From contig OZ245730.1 in the NCBI GenBank assembly GCA_965227145.1, forward strand, positions 3,086,187-3,150,186: DNA of 64,000 nucleotides, read 5' to 3'. Under the pieces are notes generated by a model. The model saw only the letters and a list, made by a program, of their open reading frames with translations, was not told the DNA's origin and did no database searches. Shown piece after piece: positions 18,609-60,332 of the stretch (positions within the stretch are counted from its first letter, which is position 1; each line of letters opens with the position of its first letter). The position numbers and the translations under genes were made by a program. Source of the DNA: Calditrichia bacterium (GTDB taxonomy: Bacteria; Calditrichota; Calditrichia; RBG-13-44-9; J075).

Positions 18609-19808
18609 GAGGTTAATCCTGTTTCAGTAAAGATTGTTGAATTTAGATTACAGACACTATTTTCGGCAGTTAAACTGCGGACTTTAATGATTGAAAATAT
18701 TTGTATTTTCGCGCCGCTTATTAAACTTTTTTTGCAACAGAGGCGCAAGGGCTCACAGAGAAAGGTTCATGAAGCCCGTGTTAATTATACTGCAATTGGT
18801 CATTACCATTATTTACATCAATATTAAACCAGATTCCTGCTCCGAAGGAGCGCCTTTGGCGCGGATGCAGGAATCTCCTGCTCAAAAAGTTATTTAGTGC
18901 AATCTCTCAGGTCTTCCGTGATGCTGCGGCTAAAATGCAAAACATCAGTTGTTAAAAAACAAGCCGACAGTATAACACATTAACCTTATATTGCGCAATT
19001 TCTTTTTAAATGCTAATGTTACCGGTCATTTGTGCTGACAGGATAACAGGATTTACCGGATCGTAAGTGCAGATACAAATTTAATTGGTTCTCTGACAAT
19101 TTTTGTGGAATAAGTTCTGTTACTGCGCCAGCCTGAGCCCTTCGGTAAGCTCAGGATAAACTGCGTCGAAGGTCGTCATTCGATAAAAAACAGAGGCTTT
19201 CCCGCAAAGCGGGACTCAGCATGACAGAATATGCATGTTTTAGCTGACTTCCACACTATTTGTCAAAGAACGATTAAATTAATATTTTCAATGTAAGGCT
19301 GAGGGAATCGAAGGACAATTCATAATGATAGCGGCTTCGACTTCGCTCAGCCTGACAAGATTTACATTTTAATTAGCAAATTATGGTAGTGTCACTATTT
19401 AATTGATATTTCAACATACAGATGCTTCGTCTCCCGGCTTTCCGGGAAAGAATCTCGTCTTTATGGTGTATCAAATCACTCAATATCTACCACTACCCAA
19501 ATTATTTCTGTCAAGGCACTTATGATGTTTATCAAATTGAGTCTTGTCATTTCCGAATCAACCAAAAACCGTGATATTTTGATGATACAATCAACAATTT
19601 ATTTTCTTGATCATCATGCATATCCTGTCAAACAAACCACTTCCATGTTTTGATTTGCGACTCAAAATACATCATTATATAGGTGCATTTGTGACTGGCT
19701 TAACAGATCGGCAAAATTCATTATATATTCCCATTTTTGTTGATATTCTTCCGTAAATAAAAATCCCCGCCATGAATATGACGGGGCTGGAAAGAACATC
19801 CCCCCTGC

Positions 19809-20005
19809 GCTGCCATTAAGTTAAGGATCAAAGTGGGCAGTTTTGTCACCCTGAGCTAAGTGTCACCCTGAGCACAGTGTCACCCTGAGCGCAGTCGAAG
19901 GGTCGATGGGTCGATGGGTCGATGGGTCGATGGGTAATTTTGCCGTGCATATATCATGGTTCGACTTCGCTCACCATGACAGGTTGTGCTTAACTTAATG
20001 GCAGC
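19809..20005. repeat. 17-bp perfect inverted repeat pair (GCTGCCATTAAGTTAAG / CTTAACTTAATGGCAGC) bracketing a 163-bp repeat-filled segment
   Basis: Arms at 19809..19825 and 19989..20005, read directly. Confidence 0.8.
19845..19936. repeat. Tandem repeat tract: 3 x 16-bp GTCACCCTGAGCnnnn units then (GGGTCGATG)x4
   Basis: Direct reading; reverse-complement copy with 8 units at 22195..22366. Confidence 0.85.
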
Positions 20006-20012
20006 ATTTCAA

Positions 20013-20066
20013 AGGAGGGGATGTCTGATTTCCCCCTTCGAAGGGGGATTAAGGGGGATGTTATCC
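20013..20066. repeat. Solo copy of the palindromic element family (core CCCCCTTCGAAGGGGG)
   Basis: GGGGATGTCTGATTTCCCCCTTCGAAGGGGGATTAAGGGGGATG; same core as arrays at 50.7 and 51.9-52.35 kb. Confidence 0.8.
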
Positions 20067-20107: not shown

Positions 20108-21037
20108 TTACGGCTGCTGGGCCAGATACCATTGATAGGTTTGGGTAATGCCATCCCGTAAAGAGATACCGGCTTTCCACCCCAAACCATTCAGTTTGGA
20201 GACATCCAGCAGTTTGCGGGGCGTGCCGTCCGGTTTGGATGTGTCAAACGTTAGTTCACCGCTAAAACCAACGATATCCTTAATCAGCAGCGCCAGGTCT
20301 TTTATTGCGATATCCTCACCCACCCCGATATTGACAATCTCGCTATCTGCATAGTGCTGCATCAGATACACACAGGCATCCGCCAGATCATCCGCATGCA
20401 GGAATTCCCGTTTGGGTGAACCAGTCCCCCAGATTTCCACGGACGGTTTTCCGGCAAGTTTGGCTTCATGAAACTTGCGGATCAGCGCCGGCAGGACGTG
20501 GGAACTTTGCAGATCGAAATTATCGTTGGATCCATACAAATTGGTGGGCATCACCGAAATAAATGATGTGCCATACTGGCGATTAAAGGACTGGCAGGTT
20601 TTGATCCCGGCAATCTTGGCGATAGCGTAAGGCTCGTTGGTCGGTTCCAGCTTGCCGTCCAGCAAATGTTCTTCCTTCATCGGTTGCGGGGCGAATTTGG
20701 GATAAATACAGGAGCTACCCAAAAACAGCAGCTTTTTCACCCCGTTCCGGTAGCTGTGATGAATAATATTGGACTGGATCATCAGGTTATCGTAGATAAA
20801 ATCCGCCGGATAATCGTTATTGGCCAAAATGCCGCCCACTTTGGCGGCAGCCAAAAATACGTATTCCGGCTGCTCTTTTTCAAAGAAAGCCGCAACGGCT
20901 GCCTGATTCCGTAGATCAAGTTCTGCGGATCGTTTGAGCACCAGATTGTTAAATCCGTTTGATGCCAACCGCCGTGCTATGGCGGAGCCAACCAGACCGC
21001 GATGTCCGGCTATGTAGATTTTTGATGTTGTTTTCAT
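20108..21037 (-). CDS. fcl: GDP-L-fucose synthase
   Basis: 309 aa; extended-SDR motifs [11 protein letters not shown], YxxxK (YAIAKIAG), and Fcl-typical NLYGSNDNF. Confidence 0.9.
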
Positions 21038-21040
21038 GTT

Positions 21041-21092
21041 GGGTGTATGGGTTAGTGGGTGAATGGGTTGATGGGTTATGGGTTGATGGGGA
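21041..21092. repeat. Simple repeat tract (GGGTnnATG-like nonamers)
   Basis: GGGTGTATGGGTTAGTGGGTGAATGGGTTGATGGGTTATGGGTTGATGGGG. Confidence 0.8.
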
Positions 21093-21266
21093 AACTGGGG
21101 GAAGTTCAGTCATTCCCGCAGGTTCCCCGATAAATAACTTCGGGGACCTGCTTTAGCGGAAATCCATCGCTATACAGTCAACATATCACCCCGCTGGGGT
21201 TTCTCATAAAAATATGGGATAATTTTCTATAAACATGTAACTGCTCTGCAGTTATTTGCATTGAAG

Positions 21267-21341
21267 CCAAAACCCCGGAGGGGTAACATGTTTATATTCG
21301 GAAAATAAATGAAACTATCCAAAACCCCGGAGGGGTGACAT
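21267..21341. repeat. Direct repeat of CCAAAACCCCGGAGGGGT[A/G]ACAT, two copies ~52 bp apart, upstream of fcl
   Basis: Copies at 21267..21290 and 21319..21341; each contains a CCCC-GGA-GGGG mini-hairpin. Confidence 0.7.
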
Positions 21342-21525
21342 TTTATAATGGTTTTAATAAAAAATTTCCAAAGAACTTATCAGCCCTGCCATTTGATGAG
21401 GGATGTTGAGGACTGCCAGACATCAAACGAATCGGTAAAAGAGAAAGTTTTATAAAACACGTTCAATAGCTCGATAGCTGTATCTGCAGATGCTATTGGA
21501 TGAGCCTGTCGAAGCCGGACTTTTT

Positions 21526-21750
21526 TTACAATTGTTTCAGGAGACTGTCATAATCGGCGTGGGAACATACCCAGAACCAAGGGATGTAATCCGTTTTTAT
21601 TACACCAACTGCCCGGTAATCCCTGCTTATTCGCACGGAATATACCGGCAGACTTGAATGAATTCTCTTAAATCGGAGTCCGGGATACCAGGGATCTTTA
21701 CGGAATACAGCATAAGCTACTTTTGCCTGTTTTTTTATTTCTGCAGGCAA
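21526..21750 (-). CDS. RelE/ParE-superfamily toxin-like protein (type II TA toxin, putative)
   Basis: 74 aa; VYSVRISRDYRAVGV...IPWFWVCSHADYD resembles the RelE/ParE beta-sheet core; sits just downstream of a small acidic ORF. Confidence 0.5.
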   Translation of the reverse strand: MPAEIKKQAKVAYAVFRKDPWYPGLRFKRIHSSLPVYSVRISRDYRAVGVIKTDYIPWFWVCSHADYDSLLKQL

Positions 21751-21792
21751 ATCATAGTAATTTTTTCAAAAATCGGGATGTTGCCTTTGATC

Positions 21793-22014
21793 TCACAATT
21801 TGTCAATGTCCAGATGGGTCGCATTACCCTGTTCATCTTCTTCCAACGCTTCCAAAGCCAGCTTAGCCAATGCGTCTTCAGATTCAGCAAACTTTTTATC
21901 CCACAGTTTTTCCGAATCAATTTCATCAAGTATCCAACGCGCTAATGCATTTTGTTCGATTTCCGGAAGCCGGGACATTTTTTTAAACGCTTTTTCCAAT
22001 AAACGGGTCATCAT
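21793..22014 (-). CDS. Putative antitoxin partner of the RelE/ParE-like toxin
   Basis: 73 aa, acidic C-terminal half, directly upstream of and co-oriented with the toxin ORF (43-nt gap). Confidence 0.4.
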   Translation of the reverse strand: MMTRLLEKAFKKMSRLPEIEQNALARWILDEIDSEKLWDKKFAESEDALAKLALEALEEDEQGNATHLDIDKL

Positions 22015-22107
22015 TTAATACCTGGCAGTTGTTATATGATCATAAATTAAATATAGTCGCAAACTGCATGTGTAGTCAATGGTCAATTTTATTGGCGGGT
22101 TGTGATC

Positions 22108-22166
22108 AGCTTTTAGCTTTTGGCTTTTAGCTTTTGGCTTTTGGCTTTTGGCTTTTGGCTTTTGGC
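22108..22166. repeat. (GGCTTT/AGCTTT)n hexamer tract
   Basis: AGCTTTTAGCTTTTGGCTTTTAGCTTTTGGCTTTTGGCTTTTGGCTTTTGGC. Confidence 0.85.
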
Positions 22167-22194
22167 AAGAAAACCCAGGGTTTACCTTCCGCCG

Positions 22195-22366
22195 CTTTGC
22201 CGCTTCGACCCTTCGACCCTTCGACTGCGCTCAGGGTGACACTGCGCTCAGGGTGACACTTGCTCAGGGTGACACTGCGCTCAGGGTGACACTTGCTCAG
22301 GGTGACACTTGCTCAGGGTGACAATCGCTCAGGGTGACACTGCGCTCAGGGTGACACTGCGCTCAG
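22195..22366. repeat. Tandem repeat tract: (CCTTCGAC)x3 then 8 x 16-bp GCTCAGGGTGACAnnn units; inverted copy of 19845..19936
   Basis: Direct reading; reverse complement gives GTCACCCTGAGC units as in the 19.85-kb tract. Confidence 0.85.
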
Positions 22367-22470
22367 GACAAGCCTTTTACTTTTTCCCTTCGGCTTCGCT
22401 CAGGACGAGCCTTTTTACTTTTTACTTTTTCCCTTCGGCTTCGCTCAGGACGAGCCTTTTTACTTATTTC
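22357..22470. repeat. ~48-bp direct repeat x2 (CGCTCAGGACRAGCC-TTTTTACT-TTTTCCCTTCGGCTT) just 3' of gmd
   Basis: Direct reading. Confidence 0.7.
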
Positions 22471-23565
22471 ACTGCTTCATCTGTTTTTCAATCTTGGCCA
22501 ACCGGTAATCTGCGACAATCATAATATCGACCAGTTCCCTGAAGGTGGTTTGGGGTTGCCAGCCGAGATGTTTTTTGGCTTTAGCCGGATCACCGATCAG
22601 CAAATCCACCTCGGTGGGACGGTAATAACGCGGGTCAATGGCCACAACCGTTTGCCCGACGCGAAAGGCCGGAGAGCGTTCCAGTCCCGGCAATTTGGGA
22701 TCATCGATATTGGCAATCACCGCATATTCTTCGCTACCGTTGCCCTGCCACTGCAAGGTTACCCCGAAGCCATCAAACGAGGCTTCGATAAATTCCCGAA
22801 CAGAATTGGTCTGTCCGGTTGCCAGCACAAAATCATCCGGTTCGCTTTGCTGGAGCATGCGCCACATACCTTCCACATATTCCGGTGCGTAGCCCCAATC
22901 GCGTTTGGCATCGAGATTTCCCATAAACAATTGTCCTGCTCGCCGATAGCCATCCGGGTAATCGCCCGGGTGATCTTGCGGGTCACAAAAGTTTCCCCGC
23001 GCCGGGGCGATTCGTGGTTAAACAAAATCCCGTTGCAGGCAAAGAGGTTATAGGCTTCGCGATAGTTCACGGTGATCCAGAAGGCATACATTTTGGCAAC
23101 GCCGTAAGGGCTGCGGGGATAAAACGGGGTGCTTTCCGTCTGCGGCACTTCCTGCACTTTGCCGTAAAGCTCCGATGTAGAAGCCTGGTAAAACCGCGCT
23201 TTGATACCGGTTTCTTTAATCGCATCGAGAAAACGCAGCGTGCCGACAGCATCCACTTCCGCAGTATATTCCGGCACCTGGAAAGAAACACCGACGTGAC
23301 TCTGGGCGGCCAGATTATAAATTTCATCCGGCTGCACCTTTTCAAGAATGCGGTTGAGGTTGGAGGAATCGGTCAAGTCCCCGTAATGCAGCACCATTTT
23401 GCGGGGCTGTTCGTGGGGATCCTGGTAAATATGTTCAATACGCTGGGTGTTAAAATTGCTGGCGCGACGGACAATGCCGTGCACCTGATAGCCTTTTTCA
23501 ATCAGCAGTTCAGTTAAATAACTGCCATCCTGACCGGTTATGCCGGTAATGAGTGCCTTTTTCAT
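22469..23565 (-). pseudogene. gmd: GDP-mannose 4,6-dehydratase, reading frame broken by an apparent 1-nt deletion (or sequencing error)
   Basis: Track ORFs 22759..23592 and 22469..22930 are the N- and C-terminal parts of one Gmd ([31 protein letters not shown] / [12 protein letters not shown]). Frames switch at 22925..22936, where GACAATTG would read through as GACAAATTG. Likely start is the second Met (MKKALITG) at 23565. Confidence 0.8.
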
Positions 23566-23718
23566 TGATGCCTCATGATTTTCTTTTGCCATGAATATTC
23601 ACGAATGGTCACGAATATCTGTAATTTTTGTCTTGAAATCAATGCTTGTATGAATTGACAGATGTCAATCATTGTTTGGGTAAATGGGTGTATGGGTAAA
23701 TGAGTGAATGGGTATAAG

Positions 23719-23940
23719 ACGCACCTCGTTACAGGCTCCTGCCTGGAATGTCTTTATCCGGTGAGGGATGATTTGGATACAATAATGGAACAGCTACGAT
23801 GTTCGACGCACCTCGTTACAGGCTCCTGCCTGGAATGTCTTTATCCGGTTATTTGGATACAATAACGGAACATCTACGATGTTCGACGCACCTCGTTACA
23901 GGCTCCTGCCTGGAATGTCTTTATCCGGTTAGGGAAGCAA
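23719..23940. repeat. ~86-bp tandem direct repeat, about 2.6 copies, upstream of gmd
   Basis: Unit GACGCACCTCGTTACAGGCTCCTGCCTGGAATGTCTTTATCCGGT...TTTGGATACAATAATGGAACAGCTACGATGTTC; partial fourth copy at 24086..24120. Confidence 0.85.
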
Positions 23941-24024
23941 AAGCAGGTGATTTGAACAAAATCATTAAAAACCGCGTAGCGGTTACATTATTGTAGAAAA
24001 TGAGTGGCAACCGGATAAATAAAT

Positions 24025-24063
24025 CCTCGTAGAGGATTCATCGTGCATTAACCCTCTACGAGG
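24025..24063. repeat. Perfect 11-bp-stem hairpin (CCTCGTAGAGG ... CCTCTACGAGG)
   Basis: Arms 24025..24035 and 24053..24063; 17-nt loop. Confidence 0.7.
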
Positions 24064-24393
24064 GTTGGTCGGTTGGGTGAAATGATTTGGCTACAATAAT
24101 GGAACATCTACGATGTAATCTTGTGTATGGTCAATTGTCAATTGTCGATGGTCGATGGTCAATTCCGAGTTCCCCGCCGCGAAGCGGTTCCTTCGGAAAA
24201 GGAGCATCTTCGGCGTCGAGTTTCGAGTTTCCGATTCCATCTGGAGCAAAACTACCGCAAAAATAAACCAATAACCTATATAATGAAAAAACCCTGCTGC
24301 CGGGTGTACTCCCGGTCGATCAGGGTTATGTTGTTGCTAGTGAAACGTCTTAAACAATAGGGAAATGGAACAACCCAGTATTAATGGATAACT

Positions 24394-49486: not shown

Positions 49487-49777
49487 TCGTTATTGGTTAA
49501 TTGCTTTTTTTTTAATCTTAATACTTTAATCTTGTCTTTTCAGGGTCGGTGCCTCTTTTACTGCAGGAAAAAAAAAGAAAAAAGAAAAAAGAAAAAAGAA
49601 AAAAGAAAAAGGAGAAAAACGAGAAAGTGAGAGATGTATTGCTTTTTGAGATTTGTGCATACTTTTGTGTAATATTGATTTTGTTTTCATTTTAACCACC
49701 TAAATTGCATATTTTTTTAAATCGTCCTTTTTCTTCCGTCTTTATTCCTTGTTCTTTCATCTTTTTTCTTTACTCTT

Positions 49778-50200
49778 TTATCTTTGATCTTTCTTCTGGT
49801 CACATTTCGAGACGATTGAACCCAGGATGAGGGCTAATTCTTTTGATTCATTCACCAAGAATCTTCTCTCATCAATATTGCCAATTTCCAATTCATCAAC
49901 AATTCTCAAAAAGTAATTGCTTTCCCTGGCTTCTCTTAGCGCAATTCGCACTTTCTGGACAAATTCACGGTATGTTGATGCCTGAGATTCCTCATAGTTG
50001 GCACCAATTGAAGTCGCTGCTTTTGAAATTTGATACCGAAATACGTCGTATTCTTTCCTGGAAGGGATTGTAAGCAAAAATTTCATGGTTCTGACAGCAA
50101 AGTTGAACAACCGTTTACGCAGGTCCGTTTGATATTTTTGTTCAACTTCCTTGACAATTAAATCAATGTTCCCCGGCACTTCCTGATAATCAATCATCAC
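49778..50200 (-). CDS. Four-helix-bundle protein (23S rRNA intervening-sequence protein family)
   Basis: 140 aa; family-typical SIGANYEESQ and REARESNYFLRI segments. Confidence 0.75.
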   Translation of the reverse strand: MMIDYQEVPGNIDLIVKEVEQKYQTDLRKRLFNFAVRTMKFLLTIPSRKEYDVFRYQISKAATSIGANYEESQASTYREFVQKVRIALREARESNYFLRIVDELEIGNIDERRFLVNESKELALILGSIVSKCDQKKDQR

Positions 50201-50218
50201 AATGGTTTTCGTTATTTG

Positions 50219-50310
50219 TCATTGATCTTTTGTCTTTTGTCTTTGATTTTTTGTCTTTGATCTTTTGTCTTAATGGTCAATGGTCAATGGTCAATGGTTA
50301 ATTAACAATT
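50219..50310. repeat. Simple repeat tract: (TCTTTTG/TCTTTGA)n then (GGTCAAT)x3
   Basis: Direct reading. Confidence 0.8.
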
Positions 50311-50374
50311 GACAATAATCAATTAACAAAATTCATTATTCCATATTCAATAGCCAACGGCGGTTTGCGTAGCT

Positions 50375-50666
50375 GCGGATGGTGGTTCAACTTTTTTCCT
50401 GACCTGCCGCTAAAGTGCGGATGGCGGTTCAACTTTTTTCCTGACCTGCCGCTAAAGTGCGAATAGTGGTTCTAAATGTTTACAACCGGCTTGTCACTAT
50501 GCCGGAAGGGGTTCAACAATATTCCCAACCTGTCGTCACTGTGCGGAAGGCAATGTAACTTTTTGATAGGCCTGTTGTCGTAGTGCAGAAGGGTTTTTAA
50601 AAAGTTTCGGCAGGGTTAAACAGTAGCCGAAGGGCAGGTATATTGTTTAAAAACAGGTTGTTAGGG
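50375..50666. repeat. Degenerating ~42-bp tandem array (2 near-identical plus ~5 decayed units)
   Basis: Units 1-2 GCGGATGGYGGTTCAACTTTTTTCCTGACCTGCCGCTAAAGT; later units keep the GCRGAAGG...TTCAAC...CCTG...GT skeleton. Confidence 0.7.
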
Positions 50667-50692: not shown

Positions 50693-50812
50693 AAGAAACA
50701 TCCCCCTTCGAAGGGGGAAATCTTGTTAGCCCCTCTTTGAAGAGGGGTTGGGGAGATGTAATCTTAAGAGACATCCCCCTTTATCCCCCTTTGAAGGGGG
50801 AAATTTTAAGAA
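50693..50812. repeat. Palindromic element family, ~1.5 units, immediately upstream of ORF 50909..51646
   Basis: AAGAAACATCCCCCTTCGAAGGGGG...CCCCTCTTTGAAGAGGGGTTGGGGAGATG... Confidence 0.85.
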
Positions 50813-50908
50813 AAAACATTTTTTTTCTAAAGTTTTCTGTTCGCATCCGATCACTTAAACATCGATAATTCATTCAATAGTATCTATTCAAACTAAGGAG
50901 AGACGCAT

Positions 50909-51646
50909 ATGATAGACCTGAGCAGATTTTTTGAAAATCAATTTGACGCCAGGATCATTAGTGACGACCGGCTGCGAAGCTTTACGGCAGATCACATCCA
51001 GCGGATGATTGCCAATAACACGGACGGCAGGTATGATCCGCTGATTGAACCCACCAAGACGTTTTACGATGCGTATTTTAACGCGATCCAGACCGAAGAT
51101 GTGCGCCTGACCGAAAAGCAGGCCATGACATTAACCAAGGATGTGAATAAAACCAATTTTGTCAAAGCGATCCGCCAGAAAGAAGGGATCATCCGGGGCA
51201 CCTGGGGCAAACAATCGCCGGAATACCGGGAATTTTTCCCGCGCGGTGTGGCAGAATATACCCGCTGCACATTGGCCAATGCGGAGAACCTGATGGCCCG
51301 CATCCTGAACCTGTCGGATAAATACAAGGATGTGTTGGGACAGGATTTTGTTGACTTGTTTACCCGTCTCCAAAACGAGTTTGTTACGGCACGGGAACAA
51401 CAGTTGCAAAAGTCCGGCAAGGTATCGGACCTGAAGCAAACCACCCGGGGCAACCGTGAAGCCCTCACCAACCAGTTGACCAAAAACCTGCTGAGCCTGG
51501 CGATTGATTCGATCGGCGAGCCGCAGCGGGTGACGGACTTCTTCGACCAGCGCATTTTGCGACGCAACAGCCGGCGCAGCGCAGGGCCGGAAAATGAACC
51601 GGTTTCTGTCAATGATACGGTTATCGAGGATGTTGTTGCCGGTTAA
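50909..51646 (+). CDS. Hypothetical protein (no recognisable domain); only plus-strand gene inside the repeat island
   Basis: 245-aa ORF with AAGGAG-like RBS (AAGGAGAGACGCAT-ATG); GC clearly higher than the adjacent AT-rich locus. Confidence 0.6.
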   Translation: MIDLSRFFENQFDARIISDDRLRSFTADHIQRMIANNTDGRYDPLIEPTKTFYDAYFNAIQTEDVRLTEKQAMTLTKDVNKTNFVKAIRQKEGIIRGTWGKQSPEYREFFPRGVAEYTRCTLANAENLMARILNLSDKYKDVLGQDFVDLFTRLQNEFVTAREQQLQKSGKVSDLKQTTRGNREALTNQLTKNLLSLAIDSIGEPQRVTDFFDQRILRRNSRRSAGPENEPVSVNDTVIEDVVAG

Positions 51647-51703
51647 TGTGTCATTCGGGGAACAGTTGCGTCGGTGTGATTGTTCCCTGTCGTTTTGTTT
51701 TGT

Positions 51704-51752
51704 CAATTAGCAATTAGCAATTAGCAATTAGCAATTAGCAATTAGCAATTGG
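51704..51752. repeat. (CAATTAG)x7 heptamer tract
   Basis: Direct reading. Confidence 0.9.
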
Positions 51753-51892
51753 CTGTTTTTTACTGCGAATGGTCAATGGTCAACCCATAAGTGGCATATC
51801 GTTATGTAAATGGGGTTCAATGGGTTTTGGTTGGGTTAATCTATTGCTGAAGGTGATGGATATAGTTTAAAAATAGTGAACGACATCTTTTT

Positions 51893-52350
51893 TTGTCCCC
51901 TGATAGACATCCCTCTGTGTCCCCTTAAGAAACATCCCCCTTTGTCCCCCTTCGAAGGGGGAAAGTTGTTTAGCCCCTCTTTGAAGAGGGGTTGGGGAGA
52001 TGTTTCTTTTGCCTTTTGAAACAGCTTCTTTTTATCACCCTAAGAGACATCCCCCTGTGTCCCCCTTCGAAGGGGGAAAGTTGTTTAGCCCCTCTTTGAA
52101 GAGGGGTTTGGGGAGATGTTTCTTCAGCTTTTTGATACAGCTTCTTTTTATCCTCTAAGAAACATCCCCCTTTGTCCCCCTTCGAAGGGGGAATCTTTTT
52201 AGCCCCTCTTTGAAGAGGGGTTGGGGAGATGTTTCTTTTGCTTTTTGAAACAGCTTCTTTTTATCCTCTAAGAGACATCCCCCTGTGTCCCCCTTCGAAG
52301 GGGGAGTCTTTTTTGCCCCTCTTTGAAGAGGGGTTGGGGAGATGTTTTCT
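51893..52350. repeat. Tandem array of ~113-bp palindrome-containing units (4 units, alternating A/B variants)
   Basis: Each unit: AAGARACATCCCC...CCCCCTTCGAAGGGGG (perfect 16-bp palindrome)...CCCCTCTTTGAAGAGGGG (hairpin)...GGGGAGATGTTTCTT (inverted copy of the unit start). Unit starts near 51929, 52044, 52156, 52270. Confidence 0.9.
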
Positions 52351-52392
52351 TCGGCAAGTAGAAGGGCACGGCGGTGCCGTGCCCCTACGTAA

Positions 52393-53523
52393 TTATTTCA
52401 TGAGCACTTCGATGATGTAATCCTGCGTATCGGCATCCAGATAGGGATGCATGGGCAGGCTGAAGATGCGGGTCATCACCGATTCGGTTACCGGGAAGTC
52501 ACCGAGCTTGTAGCCGAGACCGGCAAAAGCATCCTGCAAGTGCAGCGGTTTGGGATAATAGACCGCCGTGGGCACGCCGTTTTCTTTCAGCATTGCCATG
52601 TCCGCTTCGCGATTATCGCTGAGGATGGAGTATTGCGCCCATACGCTGCTGCGATCGTCTTTTACCTGCGGCACAATATATTTTCCGGCAAGCGCCTTGC
52701 TGTATCGCGCGGCAACTGCATCGCGCAGCTCAATTTCTTCATCAAAGATGGTCAGTTTTTCCAGCACAACGGCTGCCTGCATGGTATCCATCCGTCCGTT
52801 GATACCGATGCGAACGTTATCATATTTATGTCCGCCCTGCCCGTGAACCCGGATAGAACGGAGTTTTTCGGCGATACTGTCGTCATTGGTAAAGATGGCG
52901 CCGCCGTCGCCATAGCAACCGAGCGGTTTTGCCGGGAAGAAGGATGTGCCGGCTACATCGCCGTGGCTGCAGGTTTTAGTGCCTTTGTAAGTTGCGCCAA
53001 AGGACTGCGCAGCGTCCTGCCAGACTGCCATGCCGTATTGTTTGGCAATCGCGTTAATTTCGTCGTAATCGGCCGGCTGCCCGAACAGGTCCACCGGGAT
53101 AATGCCTTTGGGTTTGTATTCGCTTTGGGGCGATGCATAGCATTCAATGGCTTCAGCCAATGCTTTGGGATCGATGTTGTAGGTTACCGGATCGATATCC
53201 ACAAATACCGGGCGGGCACCGAGCAGGGCAATCACTTCGGCAGTGGCGATAAAGGTAAAGGGCGTGGTGAAAACGGCATCCCCGGGACCAACTTCATTGG
53301 CCATCAGTCCCATCAGCAGGGCATCGGTGCCGTTGCCGCAGCTGATGCAATGCTGTACGCCGACATAATCCGCAAGCTTGCTTTCCAGCTCTTTTATTTC
53401 CGGTCCCATGATGTATTTGCCGTGATCCAGAACAGCGGCAATCCGCCGGTCGAGGTTTTCACGAATCCGCGCCTGCTGCGCGGCAAGATCGATAAATTGA
53501 ATGTTTTTTAGTGCGGTTGTCAT
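52393..53523 (-). CDS. DegT-family sugar aminotransferase (WbpE/ArnB-like)
   Basis: 376 aa; N-terminal FIDLAAQ, GNGTDAL, PLP-lysine region; next to the oxidoreductase-acetyltransferase fusion. Confidence 0.9.
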   Translation of the reverse strand: MTTALKNIQFIDLAAQQARIRENLDRRIAAVLDHGKYIMGPEIKELESKLADYVGVQHCISCGNGTDALLMGLMANEVGPGDAVFTTPFTFIATAEVIALLGARPVFVDIDPVTYNIDPKALAEAIECYASPQSEYKPKGIIPVDLFGQPADYDEINAIAKQYGMAVWQDAAQSFGATYKGTKTCSHGDVAGTSFFPAKPLGCYGDGGAIFTNDDSIAEKLRSIRVHGQGGHKYDNVRIGINGRMDTMQAAVVLEKLTIFDEEIELRDAVAARYSKALAGKYIVPQVKDDRSSVWAQYSILSDNREADMAMLKENGVPTAVYYPKPLHLQDAFAGLGYKLGDFPVTESVMTRIFSLPMHPYLDADTQDYIIEVLMK

Positions 53524-60161: not shown

Positions 60162-60332
60162 GAGACAATTCGCTCGTAGTAGAGACAATTCATGAATTGT
60201 CTCTACGGGTGAATTCATGAATTGTCTCTACGGGTGAATTCATGAATTGTCTCTACGGGTGAATTCATGAATTGTCGCTACGGGTGATTTGTCTCTCGGG
60301 TGAATTGTTTATATCATTAAAAATTTTATCAA
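60162..60332. repeat. Tandem array of 25-bp units GGGTGAATTCATGAATTGTCTCTAC (4 full copies plus flanking partials), each with the 12-bp palindrome AATTCATGAATT; first copy forms a 28-bp perfect palindrome
   Basis: 28-bp palindrome GTAGAGACAATTCATGAATTGTCTCTAC at 60179..60206; array fills essentially the whole gap between the HtrA-like stop and the EVE start. Confidence 0.9.

Follow-up and report, generated by a model that had tools for sequence, protein, structure and literature searches.

A tandem array of nested hairpin units in a Calditrichia bacterium and its relatives in an extragenic repeat family found in several bacterial phyla

RESULTS

Location of the array

A tandem array of palindromic units was analysed in a 64,000-nt stretch of DNA from a Calditrichia bacterium (GenBank assembly GCA_965227145.1, contig OZ245730.1, positions 3,086,187 to 3,150,186 of the forward strand). 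The whole stretch is referred to below as the window, and positions are counted from its first letter. The array lies between two convergent genes. One is a plus-strand open reading frame (ORF) at 50909-51646, the other a minus-strand gene for a DegT-family aminotransferase at 52393-53523. Each gene has a terminator-like hairpin of its own. That of the ORF (51656-51689, plus strand) comes before the array. That of the DegT gene (52362-52389, minus strand) directly follows the stop codon and is GTAGGGGCACGGCACCGCCGTGCCC on the minus strand (GGGCACGGCGGTGCCGTGCCC), with a 5' GTAG; the terminator-like hairpin itself was placed at 52365-52378. The gap between these two hairpins is filled by the array and a run of the heptamer CAATTAG.

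An earlier reading of the letters alone (the first-pass annotation) had the array abutting the DegT stop codon. The array ends instead at 52352, 40 nt short of the stop at 52393, and the separate hairpin lies between them.

Organization of the array

Tandem Repeats Finder reported an array at 51926-52347 with a period of 113, 3.7 copies, 92% matches and a score of 707. By sequence reading and unit alignment, the array covers 51926-52352 and consists, as assembled, of four head-to-tail units of 113-115 bp, starting at 51926, 52041, 52156 and 52269. The four tandem units of about 113 bp in the first-pass annotation were thus confirmed. Its span, 51893-52350, was right in part: the full units begin at 51926, and what precedes them at the 5' edge (51893-51925, plus strand, GATAGACATCCCTCTGTGTCCCCTT) is only part of a unit and degenerate.

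Each unit joins a core of 84-86 nt to a T-rich linker that is about 30 nt long. The core contains, in this order, a left arm (AAGA(A/G)ACATCCCC), a palindromic hairpin designated P (TCCCCCTTCGAAGGGGGA), a spacer of about 11 nt, a second hairpin designated H2 (CCCCTCTTTGAAGAGGGG) and a right arm (GGGGAGATGTTTCTT). All four cores are on the plus strand. The core of unit 1 (51926-52010) has the left arm AAGAAACATCCCC, P at 51945-51962, H2 at 51974-51991 and the right arm GGGGAGATGTTTCTT; its folding z-scores were -5.9 to -6.1. Unit 2 (52041-52126) has a left-arm variant, AAGAGACATCCCCCTGTGT, with P at 52060-52077 and H2 at 52089-52106. P and H2 are at 52175-52192 and 52203-52220 in unit 3 (52156-52239), and at 52288-52305 and 52316-52333 in unit 4 (52269-52352), the last one, whose right arm is GGGGAGATGTTTTCTT. 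The linker at 52011-52040 (plus strand, TTGCCTTTTGAAACAGCTTCTTTTTATCACCC) has counterparts at 52127-52155 and 52240-52268.

These motifs were far more frequent in the window than expected. The 16-bp palindrome at the centre of the first-pass description, CCCCCTTCGAAGGGGG, was present as an exact copy in every unit (51946, 52061, 52176 and 52289). Two more exact copies were found at 20032 and 50702, and one with a single mismatch at 50785. These seven matches compared with 0.01 expected, and the number was reached in none of 100 shuffles. H2 occurred in five exact copies (50730, 51974, 52089, 52203 and 52316) against 0 expected, and the right arm GGGGAGATGT also in five, against 0.09. The left-arm sequence ACATCCCC occurred 11 times against 1.6. 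The second hairpin and the terminal inverted segments previously attributed to each unit were thus confirmed.

The cores of the array were 89-96% identical in pairwise comparison. An alternation of A and B variants, also proposed earlier, held at two to three diagnostic sites (AAGAAAC..CTTTGT versus AAGAGAC..CTGTGT) and in the linker. The spacer between the hairpins did not follow it. It grouped units 1 and 2 against units 3 and 4, cutting across the A/B grouping, so that the array is a mosaic. This suggested that the array had been reshuffled after it formed, and that it did not arise from collapsed reads.

The array does not have the make-up of a CRISPR (clusters of regularly interspaced short palindromic repeats) array. 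Unit alignment showed contiguous units, a conserved linker and no unique spacers, and the only Rfam CRISPR match scored 16 bits against a threshold of 39.

Folding of the unit

Folding of single units had been put forward as a check in the first-pass annotation. The 85-nt core folded as a three-way junction, in which the arms AAGAAACATCCCC and GGGGAGATGTTTCTT, pairing across about 60 nt, close around P and H2. The z-scores were -5 to -6 on both strands, and RNA and DNA parameters gave similar values. The left-arm G of units 2 and 4 forms a G-U pair on the plus strand and an A-C mismatch on the minus strand. In a check for intrinsic terminators, T-rich tails were seen after the array hairpins on the plus strand; the hairpins of the ORF and the DegT gene are nearer to their own stop codons. 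No Rfam family reached its gathering threshold in the window, where all E-value matches were far below threshold. Among 18 related loci from other genomes, the sole Rfam match was an unrelated tRNA.

Other copies in the window

The family occupies three extragenic locations spread over 32 kb of the window, with seven P sites in total. The first-pass annotation had pointed to further copies at 50693-50812 and 20013-20066. Copies were present at both places, with different extents (50693-50801 and 19790-20066).

The first location holds a solitary full unit and a half unit, both on the plus strand. In the full unit (50693-50765), the left arm is fused to P (50701-50718) and is followed by H2 (50730-50747) and the right arm GGGGAGATGTAATCTT. 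The half unit (50766-50801), a singlet, consists of the left arm AAGAGACATCCCCC and a P variant, TCCCCCTTTGAAGGGGGA. A contig of a related strain (L125) begins exactly at this half unit and has the TTCGAA form.

The second location lies just downstream of the stop codon of an epimerase gene (20108-21037, minus strand). Here P (20031-20048) lies within 20013-20066 (plus strand), between two arms that point the same way (GGGGATGTCT and AGGGGGATGTT) and match a left arm at 19796. That left arm belongs to a composite at 19790-20026 (plus strand), read directly from the sequence, with the arms AGAACATCCCCCC and GGAGGGGATGTCT. A perfect 17-bp inverted repeat (GCTGCCATTAAGTTAAG / CTTAACTTAATGGCAGC) and the arms enclose about 160 bp of other tandem repeats, and the composite closed by the arm at 19796 and this inverted repeat spans about 230 bp. 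Among the enclosed repeats are three copies (19844-19895) of TGTCACCCTGAGC.., the complement of a 17-nt unit, ACTGCGCTCAGGGTGAC, that is repeated 8.7 times at 22224-22367. A 12-mer, GTCACCCTGAGC, was also present in two stretches from other genomes, L028 and L106.

The family in other genomes

The 18-mer P was found in at least 120 genome stretches, against about 9 expected by chance in 596 Gb. The repeat is therefore dispersed, as the first-pass annotation had it, both over the window and well beyond it. The taxon tally, locus counts and flanking-gene analyses given here refer to the at least 120 P-bearing stretches listed; the first two were tallied from record titles. These genomes were examined as 8-kb slices and the present one as 64 kb.

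Among the matches listed, Hydrogenedentota contributed 35 stretches, Bacteroidota 21, Balneolaceae and relatives 18, Rhodothermales 11, Calditrichia 9 and KSB1 7. Another 7 came from metagenome-assembled genomes (MAGs) labelled Nitrospirales or Nitrospiraceae, 1 from Chlorobi and 11 from others. Cultured isolates of Fodinibius, Aliifodinibius, Rhodohalobacter, Maribellus and Draconibacterium were among the carriers. Among these matches, single genomes contained several loci. One Calditrichia MAG had 8, a Hydrogenedentota MAG had 7, and so did a Rhodothermales MAG.

P was regularly accompanied by a constant arm, CATCCCCC or GGGGGATG. CATCCCC or GGGGATG lay within 90 nt of 131 of the 148 P sites (88%) among the matches listed, and the usual layout was ACATCCCCCT-NNN-P and/or P-NNN-AGGGGGATGT. 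This sharing of the ends across phyla is beyond what the first-pass annotation foresaw. The pattern of P followed by H2 had no exact match in genome or metagenome contigs, which suggested that H2 may be lineage-specific. Resemblances of the motif to a CsrA-type GGAUGU site, an anti-Shine-Dalgarno sequence, a tRNA T-arm, a G-quadruplex and an i-motif were considered and set aside, as they are partial and the motif is mostly paired.

As a control, 502 kb of unrelated metagenome contigs carrying DegT homologues contained neither a P site nor an arm pair. One P site was found in 2.9 million viral contigs. Plasmids, searched with the window unit only, gave one match, at an unannotated site of a finished 615-kb Aureibacter plasmid. 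A text search of the literature found the 16-mer palindrome in none of the papers covered, and 10-mer matches were primers and similar sequences. Keyword searches returned only general papers on repetitive extragenic palindromic (REP) sequences and transposable elements of the miniature inverted-repeat type (MITEs). The family is apparently undescribed.

The sites were extragenic, and one was intercistronic, between hisG and hisD inside an operon. Of 77 sites that could be classified, 47 lay between tandem, 19 between convergent and 11 between divergent genes; these figures are based on crude ORF calls and are indicative only.

Neither a transposase nor a recombinase, nor any other ORF family, recurred within about 4 kb of the at least 120 loci on ORF clustering. 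The neighbours were sigma-54 activators, ABC-F proteins, oxidoreductases, hisD, hisG, secG and similar housekeeping families. In the 8-kb slices, ORFs were scanned in 12 of the 37 gaps between neighbouring sites (350-3200 bp); they were hisD, hisG, secG, merB-like or of no family, and none was a transposase. No Y1/HUH enzyme was found among the window ORFs scanned or near the at least 120 loci. A scan of 1.4 Mb for motifs like those of a REP-associated tyrosine transposase (RAYT) gave no match, which is weak evidence.

Module grammar

The basic module of the family is a C-rich arm, CATCCCCCT, beside P, a hairpin with a 7-bp stem (TCCCCCTTCGAAGGGGGA). When two modules are inverted, their arms pair as a closing stem around P and, in some cases, also around more hairpins (H2 here, a hairpin designated X elsewhere) or an unrelated interior. 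The terminal inverted repeats are ACATCCCCC(T)...(A)GGGGGATGT, reaching about 35 bp in Hydrogenedentota. The ends also contain TCCCCCT boxes, which form direct repeats at a spacing of 10-11 bp in the order right, right, left, left.

Five forms were distinguished. Form 1 is a singlet of arm and P. Form 2 is a compact and perfect arm-P-arm palindrome of 44-50 nt. Form 3 adds X, a hairpin whose sequence varies, as arm-X-P or arm-X-P-X-arm. Form 4 is an inverted doublet, found mostly in Hydrogenedentota, in which two ends of 35 nt flank an interior and pair in the predicted folds. Form 5 comprises clusters, either tandem or mosaic (L105, L085, the Rhodothermales loci and L104).

Form 4 kept its length to a large degree. 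Ten of the 15 doublets measured 154-158 bp (about 157 bp), and in 11 of the 15 the interior was 88-98 nt. The ends were near-invariant. The interiors were unique, except that they shared a 20-nt hairpin, CGCAACGC-N3-GCGTTGCG, next to one P copy of the pair. Two Hydrogenedentota MAGs had in common a subfamily whose interior is conserved (L030, L046, L111 and L119). Two of its copies, at 6590-6640 of L111 and in L119, were otherwise about 97% identical, and five substitutions between them clustered within 8 nt of the interior (CTGTTGCT versus ACGCTGCG). In a Hydrogenedentota MAG, a 102-bp unit ending in P and the right arm was repeated in tandem at 560-900 of L105, beside a run of N. This indicated that arrays of the family also occur, and break assemblies, in another phylum.

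Structure was kept where sequence was not. X folded in 36 of 41 P-X-arm modules from other genomes, with a median z of -3.8 and diverse sequences, and the element in L036 formed a four-way junction with a z of -7.3. In the 15 compact copies, the base just outside ACAT was paired in 14, with five types of pair, and the next base outward in 11. The first base of the spacer was paired in all 15, with four types of pair. The covariation score of these copies was matched in none of 500 shuffles, and a shift of the register by 1-3 columns abolished it.

No target-site duplication was found in the 15 compact copies, whose flanks are inverted complements and not direct repeats, and no consistent one in about 12 long copies. 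The inverted-complement flanks could come from selection for a folded single strand. They could also come from template switching during replication, which 'perfects' quasi-palindromes.

Persistence of the ends

In two cases, a pair of species has an element next to the same flanking gene. The coding DNA was 81% identical for L014/L041 and 78% for L069/L116. The arm-plus-P ends of both pairs showed only 1-2 differences over 33-37 positions (95-97% identical). The rest was different. The interiors of L014 and L041 aligned only in part; the central interior had the same orientation in both, and the small hairpin stood at opposite ends. The interiors of L069 and L116 were 33 and 97 nt long, and the intergenic DNA from gene to element could not be aligned. 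The simplest reading of these sequences is long residence, with either strong constraint on the ends or homogenization of the ends only. Independent insertion would be less simple. An inverton was considered as well, and the L014/L041 comparison did not support it, since the difference is not a simple inversion.

Genes around the repeats and comparison with relatives

The ORF at 50909-51646 had been taken for an orphan. It has seven homologues at 40-97% identity, none of known function, and it matched no family in Pfam, NCBIfam or PHROGs. The gene is genuine, though without annotation. In L123 the homologue has housekeeping genes as neighbours and no repeats beside it.

The DegT hairpin at 52362-52389 resembles the GTAG-tagged class of REP sequences (tag as defined in PMC3733652). 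A similar hairpin, GTAGGGGCAGAT..ATCTGCCC, adjoins P in L056.

The region of glycan biosynthesis genes at 20108-50200 has an island of 28-31% G+C at 28-44 kb. The closest available relative, L122 (assembly GCA_025450675.1, about 75% amino-acid identity), has the same ORF, epimerase, dehydratase, DegT and GFO/hexapeptide genes in a different order. Relative to L122, the epimerase and dehydratase genes (20108-23592) are on the other side of the island and the ORF. The repeats are exactly at the borders of the rearranged blocks, with P at 20031 and at 50701-52305. These elements might serve as handles for recombination, or their presence there might only reflect accumulation at the boundaries of modules. 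The syntenic region of L122 contained no copy of the repeat, which suggested that the family is gained and lost. Metagenome relatives found through DegT were at most 68% identical and had no repeat copies. Exact look-ups of two window proteins gave no match, and no paper was found that mentions the L122 assembly.

In the strain with the 97%-identical ORF, contigs start at the P palindrome and stop at the heptamer run, which showed that the repeats break assemblies. No integrase was detected by Pfam scans of the ORFs close to the repeats and of those in the first 17 kb of the window.

Other repeats of the window

Tandem repeats of 7 nt fill the intergenic DNA at 21040-21090, 22109-22166, 23673-23714, 24130-24164, 49571-49618, 50215-50302 and 51704-51783. 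The heptamers are GCTTTTG (8 copies), CAATTAG (6.7 copies), AATGGTC, TTTGTCT, AAAAAAG, TGGGTTA and GTCAATT. Heptamer runs also adjoin P elements in L004, L011, L038, L104 and L110. A gene for a 23S_rRNA_IVP (Avd-like four-helix-bundle) protein (49778-50200, minus strand, E 5e-13) lies amid the heptamer blocks, about 500 bp from the first P element of that part of the window. No reverse transcriptase was found in the ORFs scanned.

The short tandemly repeated repetitive (STRR) sequences of cyanobacteria are simple direct tandem heptamer repeats and not nested palindromes. The intergenic heptamers of this genome are like them, and the TCCCCCT box is also a heptamer, but a link is speculative.

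Unrelated tandem repeats are at 23771-23931 (80 bp, 2 copies, 97%), 60187-60287 (25 bp, 4 copies, 98%), 50374-50472 (42 bp, 2.4 copies) and 22375-22465 (45 bp, 2 copies, 100%). Other types of palindrome are at 21150-21340 and 23990-24070, namely AAAACCCCGGAGGGGT, present twice, CCTCGTAGAGGATT and AACCCTCTACGAGGGTT. These indicated that the genome has several distinct families of hairpin repeats.

DISCUSSION

Extragenic hairpin repeats with a proposed spread in trans

We interpreted the array as a cluster of extragenic hairpin repeats like REP sequences, bacterial interspersed mosaic elements (BIMEs) or REPINs, spread in trans by an unlinked enzyme that recognizes hairpins. We hold this interpretation with middling confidence. 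The label was preferred on the grounds of extragenic sites, of nested hairpins arranged singly, as inverted doublets at a preferred spacing or in clusters, of the lack of a target-site duplication and of the absence of a transposase nearby.

REPINs are REP doublets that form hairpins, described together with RAYT transposases in Pseudomonas fluorescens SBW25 (PMC3116915). Like them, the present elements are extragenic and form inverted doublets at a preferred spacing, with ends that are more conserved than the spacer and pair as a long hairpin. Singlets and clusters exist in both, and both are without target duplication and without a transposase inside the element (PMC3116915). Like REPs and BIMEs, the elements are short GC-rich stem-loops at extragenic and intercistronic sites, more common between tandem and convergent genes than between divergent ones. 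P with its arm measures about 30 nt, within the REP range of 20-40 nt, and mosaic clusters are built from a few modules (the Rhodothermales loci and L104).

In the mechanism that we propose, an unlinked enzyme acting in trans would read the hairpins of folded single-stranded DNA and copy this DNA into further extragenic sites. The obvious candidate would be a RAYT or IS200-type Y1 transposase. The copies would persist for a long time with their ends kept intact. At the present locus, slippage during replication or unequal recombination would have turned one unit into four, and the mosaic of variants would stem from later exchanges. Effects on the host, through RNA hairpins at gene ends or patches of homology at the borders of the glycan cluster, would be secondary. 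The single-stranded intermediate, the Y1-type enzyme and mobility itself are what we infer. A gap between convergent genes with their own terminator-like hairpins is a safe place for selfish DNA.

Several observations weigh against this interpretation or set the family apart from known repeats. Neither a RAYT nor another candidate enzyme was seen, a weak negative given the 64 kb covered here and the 8-kb slices elsewhere; a REPIN-like element without a linked RAYT is in itself a difference. The GTAG or CGTC tag that marks one stem foot in the REP superfamilies (PMC3733652), and that most catalogued REPs have, is absent. The constant flank is (A/T)CATCCCCC, and the constant motif CATCCCCC/GGGGGATG. 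CGTC REPs do not fit in other respects either, as their stems of 8-9 bp start with A-T pairs and have a CCA tail. The end of a REPIN is one imperfect palindrome, whereas here it is an arm and a separate hairpin with direct TCCCCCT repeats, and extra nested hairpins lead to three- and four-way junctions. BIME units alternate in orientation, whereas the window array is head-to-tail with a single type of linker. The end of about 30 nt is almost unchanged across phyla, whereas REPs and REPINs are usually specific to a species, genus or lineage, and such sharing is not predicted by the REPIN model. The direct TCCCCCT repeats at 10-11 bp would also suit a protein that binds double-stranded DNA. Finally, no insertion or excision polymorphism was found, and mobility was not observed. 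Ends shared across phyla, one-turn TCCCCCT repeats and unique interiors of constant length exceed the REPIN model, and they keep alive the readings of the family as a MITE, a structured RNA or a protein site, besides giving scope for a more novel mechanism.

A possible constant frame with variable segments

The elements might instead belong to a new kind of hairpin-element machinery, or serve as a scaffold that carries variable segments. We regarded this as unlikely. The family would then be defined by the closing stem ACATCCCCC...GGGGGATGT and the hairpin TCCCCCTTCGAAGGGGGA, and the array would be a local bloom. Different hairpins, or unique interiors of about 97 nt, would be slotted into a constant frame of folded DNA or RNA. 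Ends that stay almost constant from Bacteroidota to Hydrogenedentota, and at one locus in different species, while interiors are replaced would imply a dedicated and conserved trans-acting machinery. Such an element could be a new hairpin-specific mobile element, or a carrier of cargo or guide segments.

The attC sites of integrons offer a likeness, being folded single-strand sites with conserved inverted ends and a variable center, in which structure counts for more than sequence. They differ in their RYYYAAC/GTTRRRY ends and in following cassettes beside an integrase, none of which was seen here.

A possible structured RNA

The unit might be transcribed, as a small RNA, in a 3' untranslated region or between cistrons, and act as a terminator, an exonuclease block, an RNase III substrate or a scaffold for variable segments. 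The strong folds, the covarying positions and the hairpin X, kept in structure and variable in sequence, would all suit an RNA. So would the T-rich tails after the plus-strand hairpins, the left-arm G of units 2 and 4 that pairs on the plus strand only as G-U, the site between hisG and hisD, and the conservation of the ends next to one gene shared by two species, where the intergenic DNA around them cannot be aligned. We nevertheless rated this reading as rather improbable. No Rfam family was found at threshold in the window or at the 18 loci. A terminator-like hairpin already follows each flanking gene, before the array is reached. No promoter motif of the Bacteroidota type was seen in the linkers, inspected by eye and with no tool. 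A near-perfect palindrome is the same on both strands, and either strand and DNA parameters fold equally well. In addition, 11 of the 77 classified sites are in divergent intergenic regions, and a fixed sequence across phyla, and not only a fixed structure, would be left unexplained.

A classical MITE as a possible alternative

The first-pass annotation had called the element 'MITE-like or REP/BIME-like'. The second half of this description, extended to REPINs, fits better, as two defining features of MITEs were not found. If the elements were MITEs, they would be deletion derivatives of an insertion sequence (IS) whose DDE transposase binds the ACATCCCCC...GGGGGATGT termini and moves them by cut-and-paste, and the IS would have spread horizontally. 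The terminal inverted repeats of 12-35 bp, the size of 44-270 bp and the many copies per genome agree with this, and horizontal spread would account for the common ends. The 10-11-bp direct repeats in each end resemble multiple transposase binding sites, and some subfamilies have interiors common to two genomes (L030 and L046). The Correia, ERIC/IRU and RUP MITEs are similar in being 50-300 bp long, with terminal inverted repeats, a long hairpin and many intergenic copies. Those elements, however, have target duplications (TA for Correia), an identifiable parent IS family and copies homologous over their full length. Here the flanks of the 15 compact and about 12 long copies are inverted complements with no target-site duplication. 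No parent was found, and no transposase ORF lay between or beside the arms in about 0.9 Mb. Copies in the same genome mostly have unrelated interiors, which is not what a MITE amplified in the recent past would show. Viral contigs are nearly free of the motif, and the plasmid search with the window unit gave its single match. A classical MITE is therefore quite unlikely.

Possible sites for a protein on duplex DNA

The elements could also be bound as duplex DNA by a conserved protein of the host (for example a nucleoid-associated protein, gyrase, or a site-specific recombinase or invertase). The TCCCCCT boxes would be its binding sites, and the doublets of about 157 bp would be wrapped or invertible. 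Four boxes at 10-11 bp, about one helical turn, would agree with this, as would sequence identity across phyla, a conserved doublet length with a free interior, ends kept beside the same gene in two species, and elements at the borders of a rearranged glycan gene cluster. We consider such sites very unlikely to be the explanation. A reader of duplex DNA needs neither the variable hairpins X and H2 nor the pairing of flanks that are not conserved. L014 and L041 do not differ by a simple inversion, and no recombinase gene recurs nearby. The family is patchy, being absent from the relative at about 75% identity and from the 502 kb of controls, and this argues against a core host function.

A supposed accident of duplication or assembly

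A chance palindrome duplicated locally, or an assembly artefact, is barely credible and was refuted save for the exact copy number: short-read assemblers can produce or mis-size tandem arrays, and the related-strain contigs do break at the repeats, exactly at P, but the motifs are far above chance in the window, the units differ as a mosaic, and the same modules are present in at least 120 independent assemblies, including those of cultured isolates and a finished plasmid.

Significance

Among the non-coding features of bacterial genomes, REP-type repeats rank with the most abundant and the least understood. The families described so far are mostly from Proteobacteria and lineage-specific. The present family differs in occurring in Bacteroidota, Balneolaceae, Rhodothermales, Calditrichia, KSB1 and Hydrogenedentota with an end of about 30 nt that is nearly fixed. 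It also differs in its interchangeable hairpin modules and in doublets that keep their length but not their interior. In practical terms, the repeats break short-read assemblies, mark the borders of a variable glycan gene cluster in the window and yield spurious ORF calls. If a partner enzyme or an RNA function could be tied to them, either the REPIN-RAYT picture would reach new phyla or a different mechanism would emerge.

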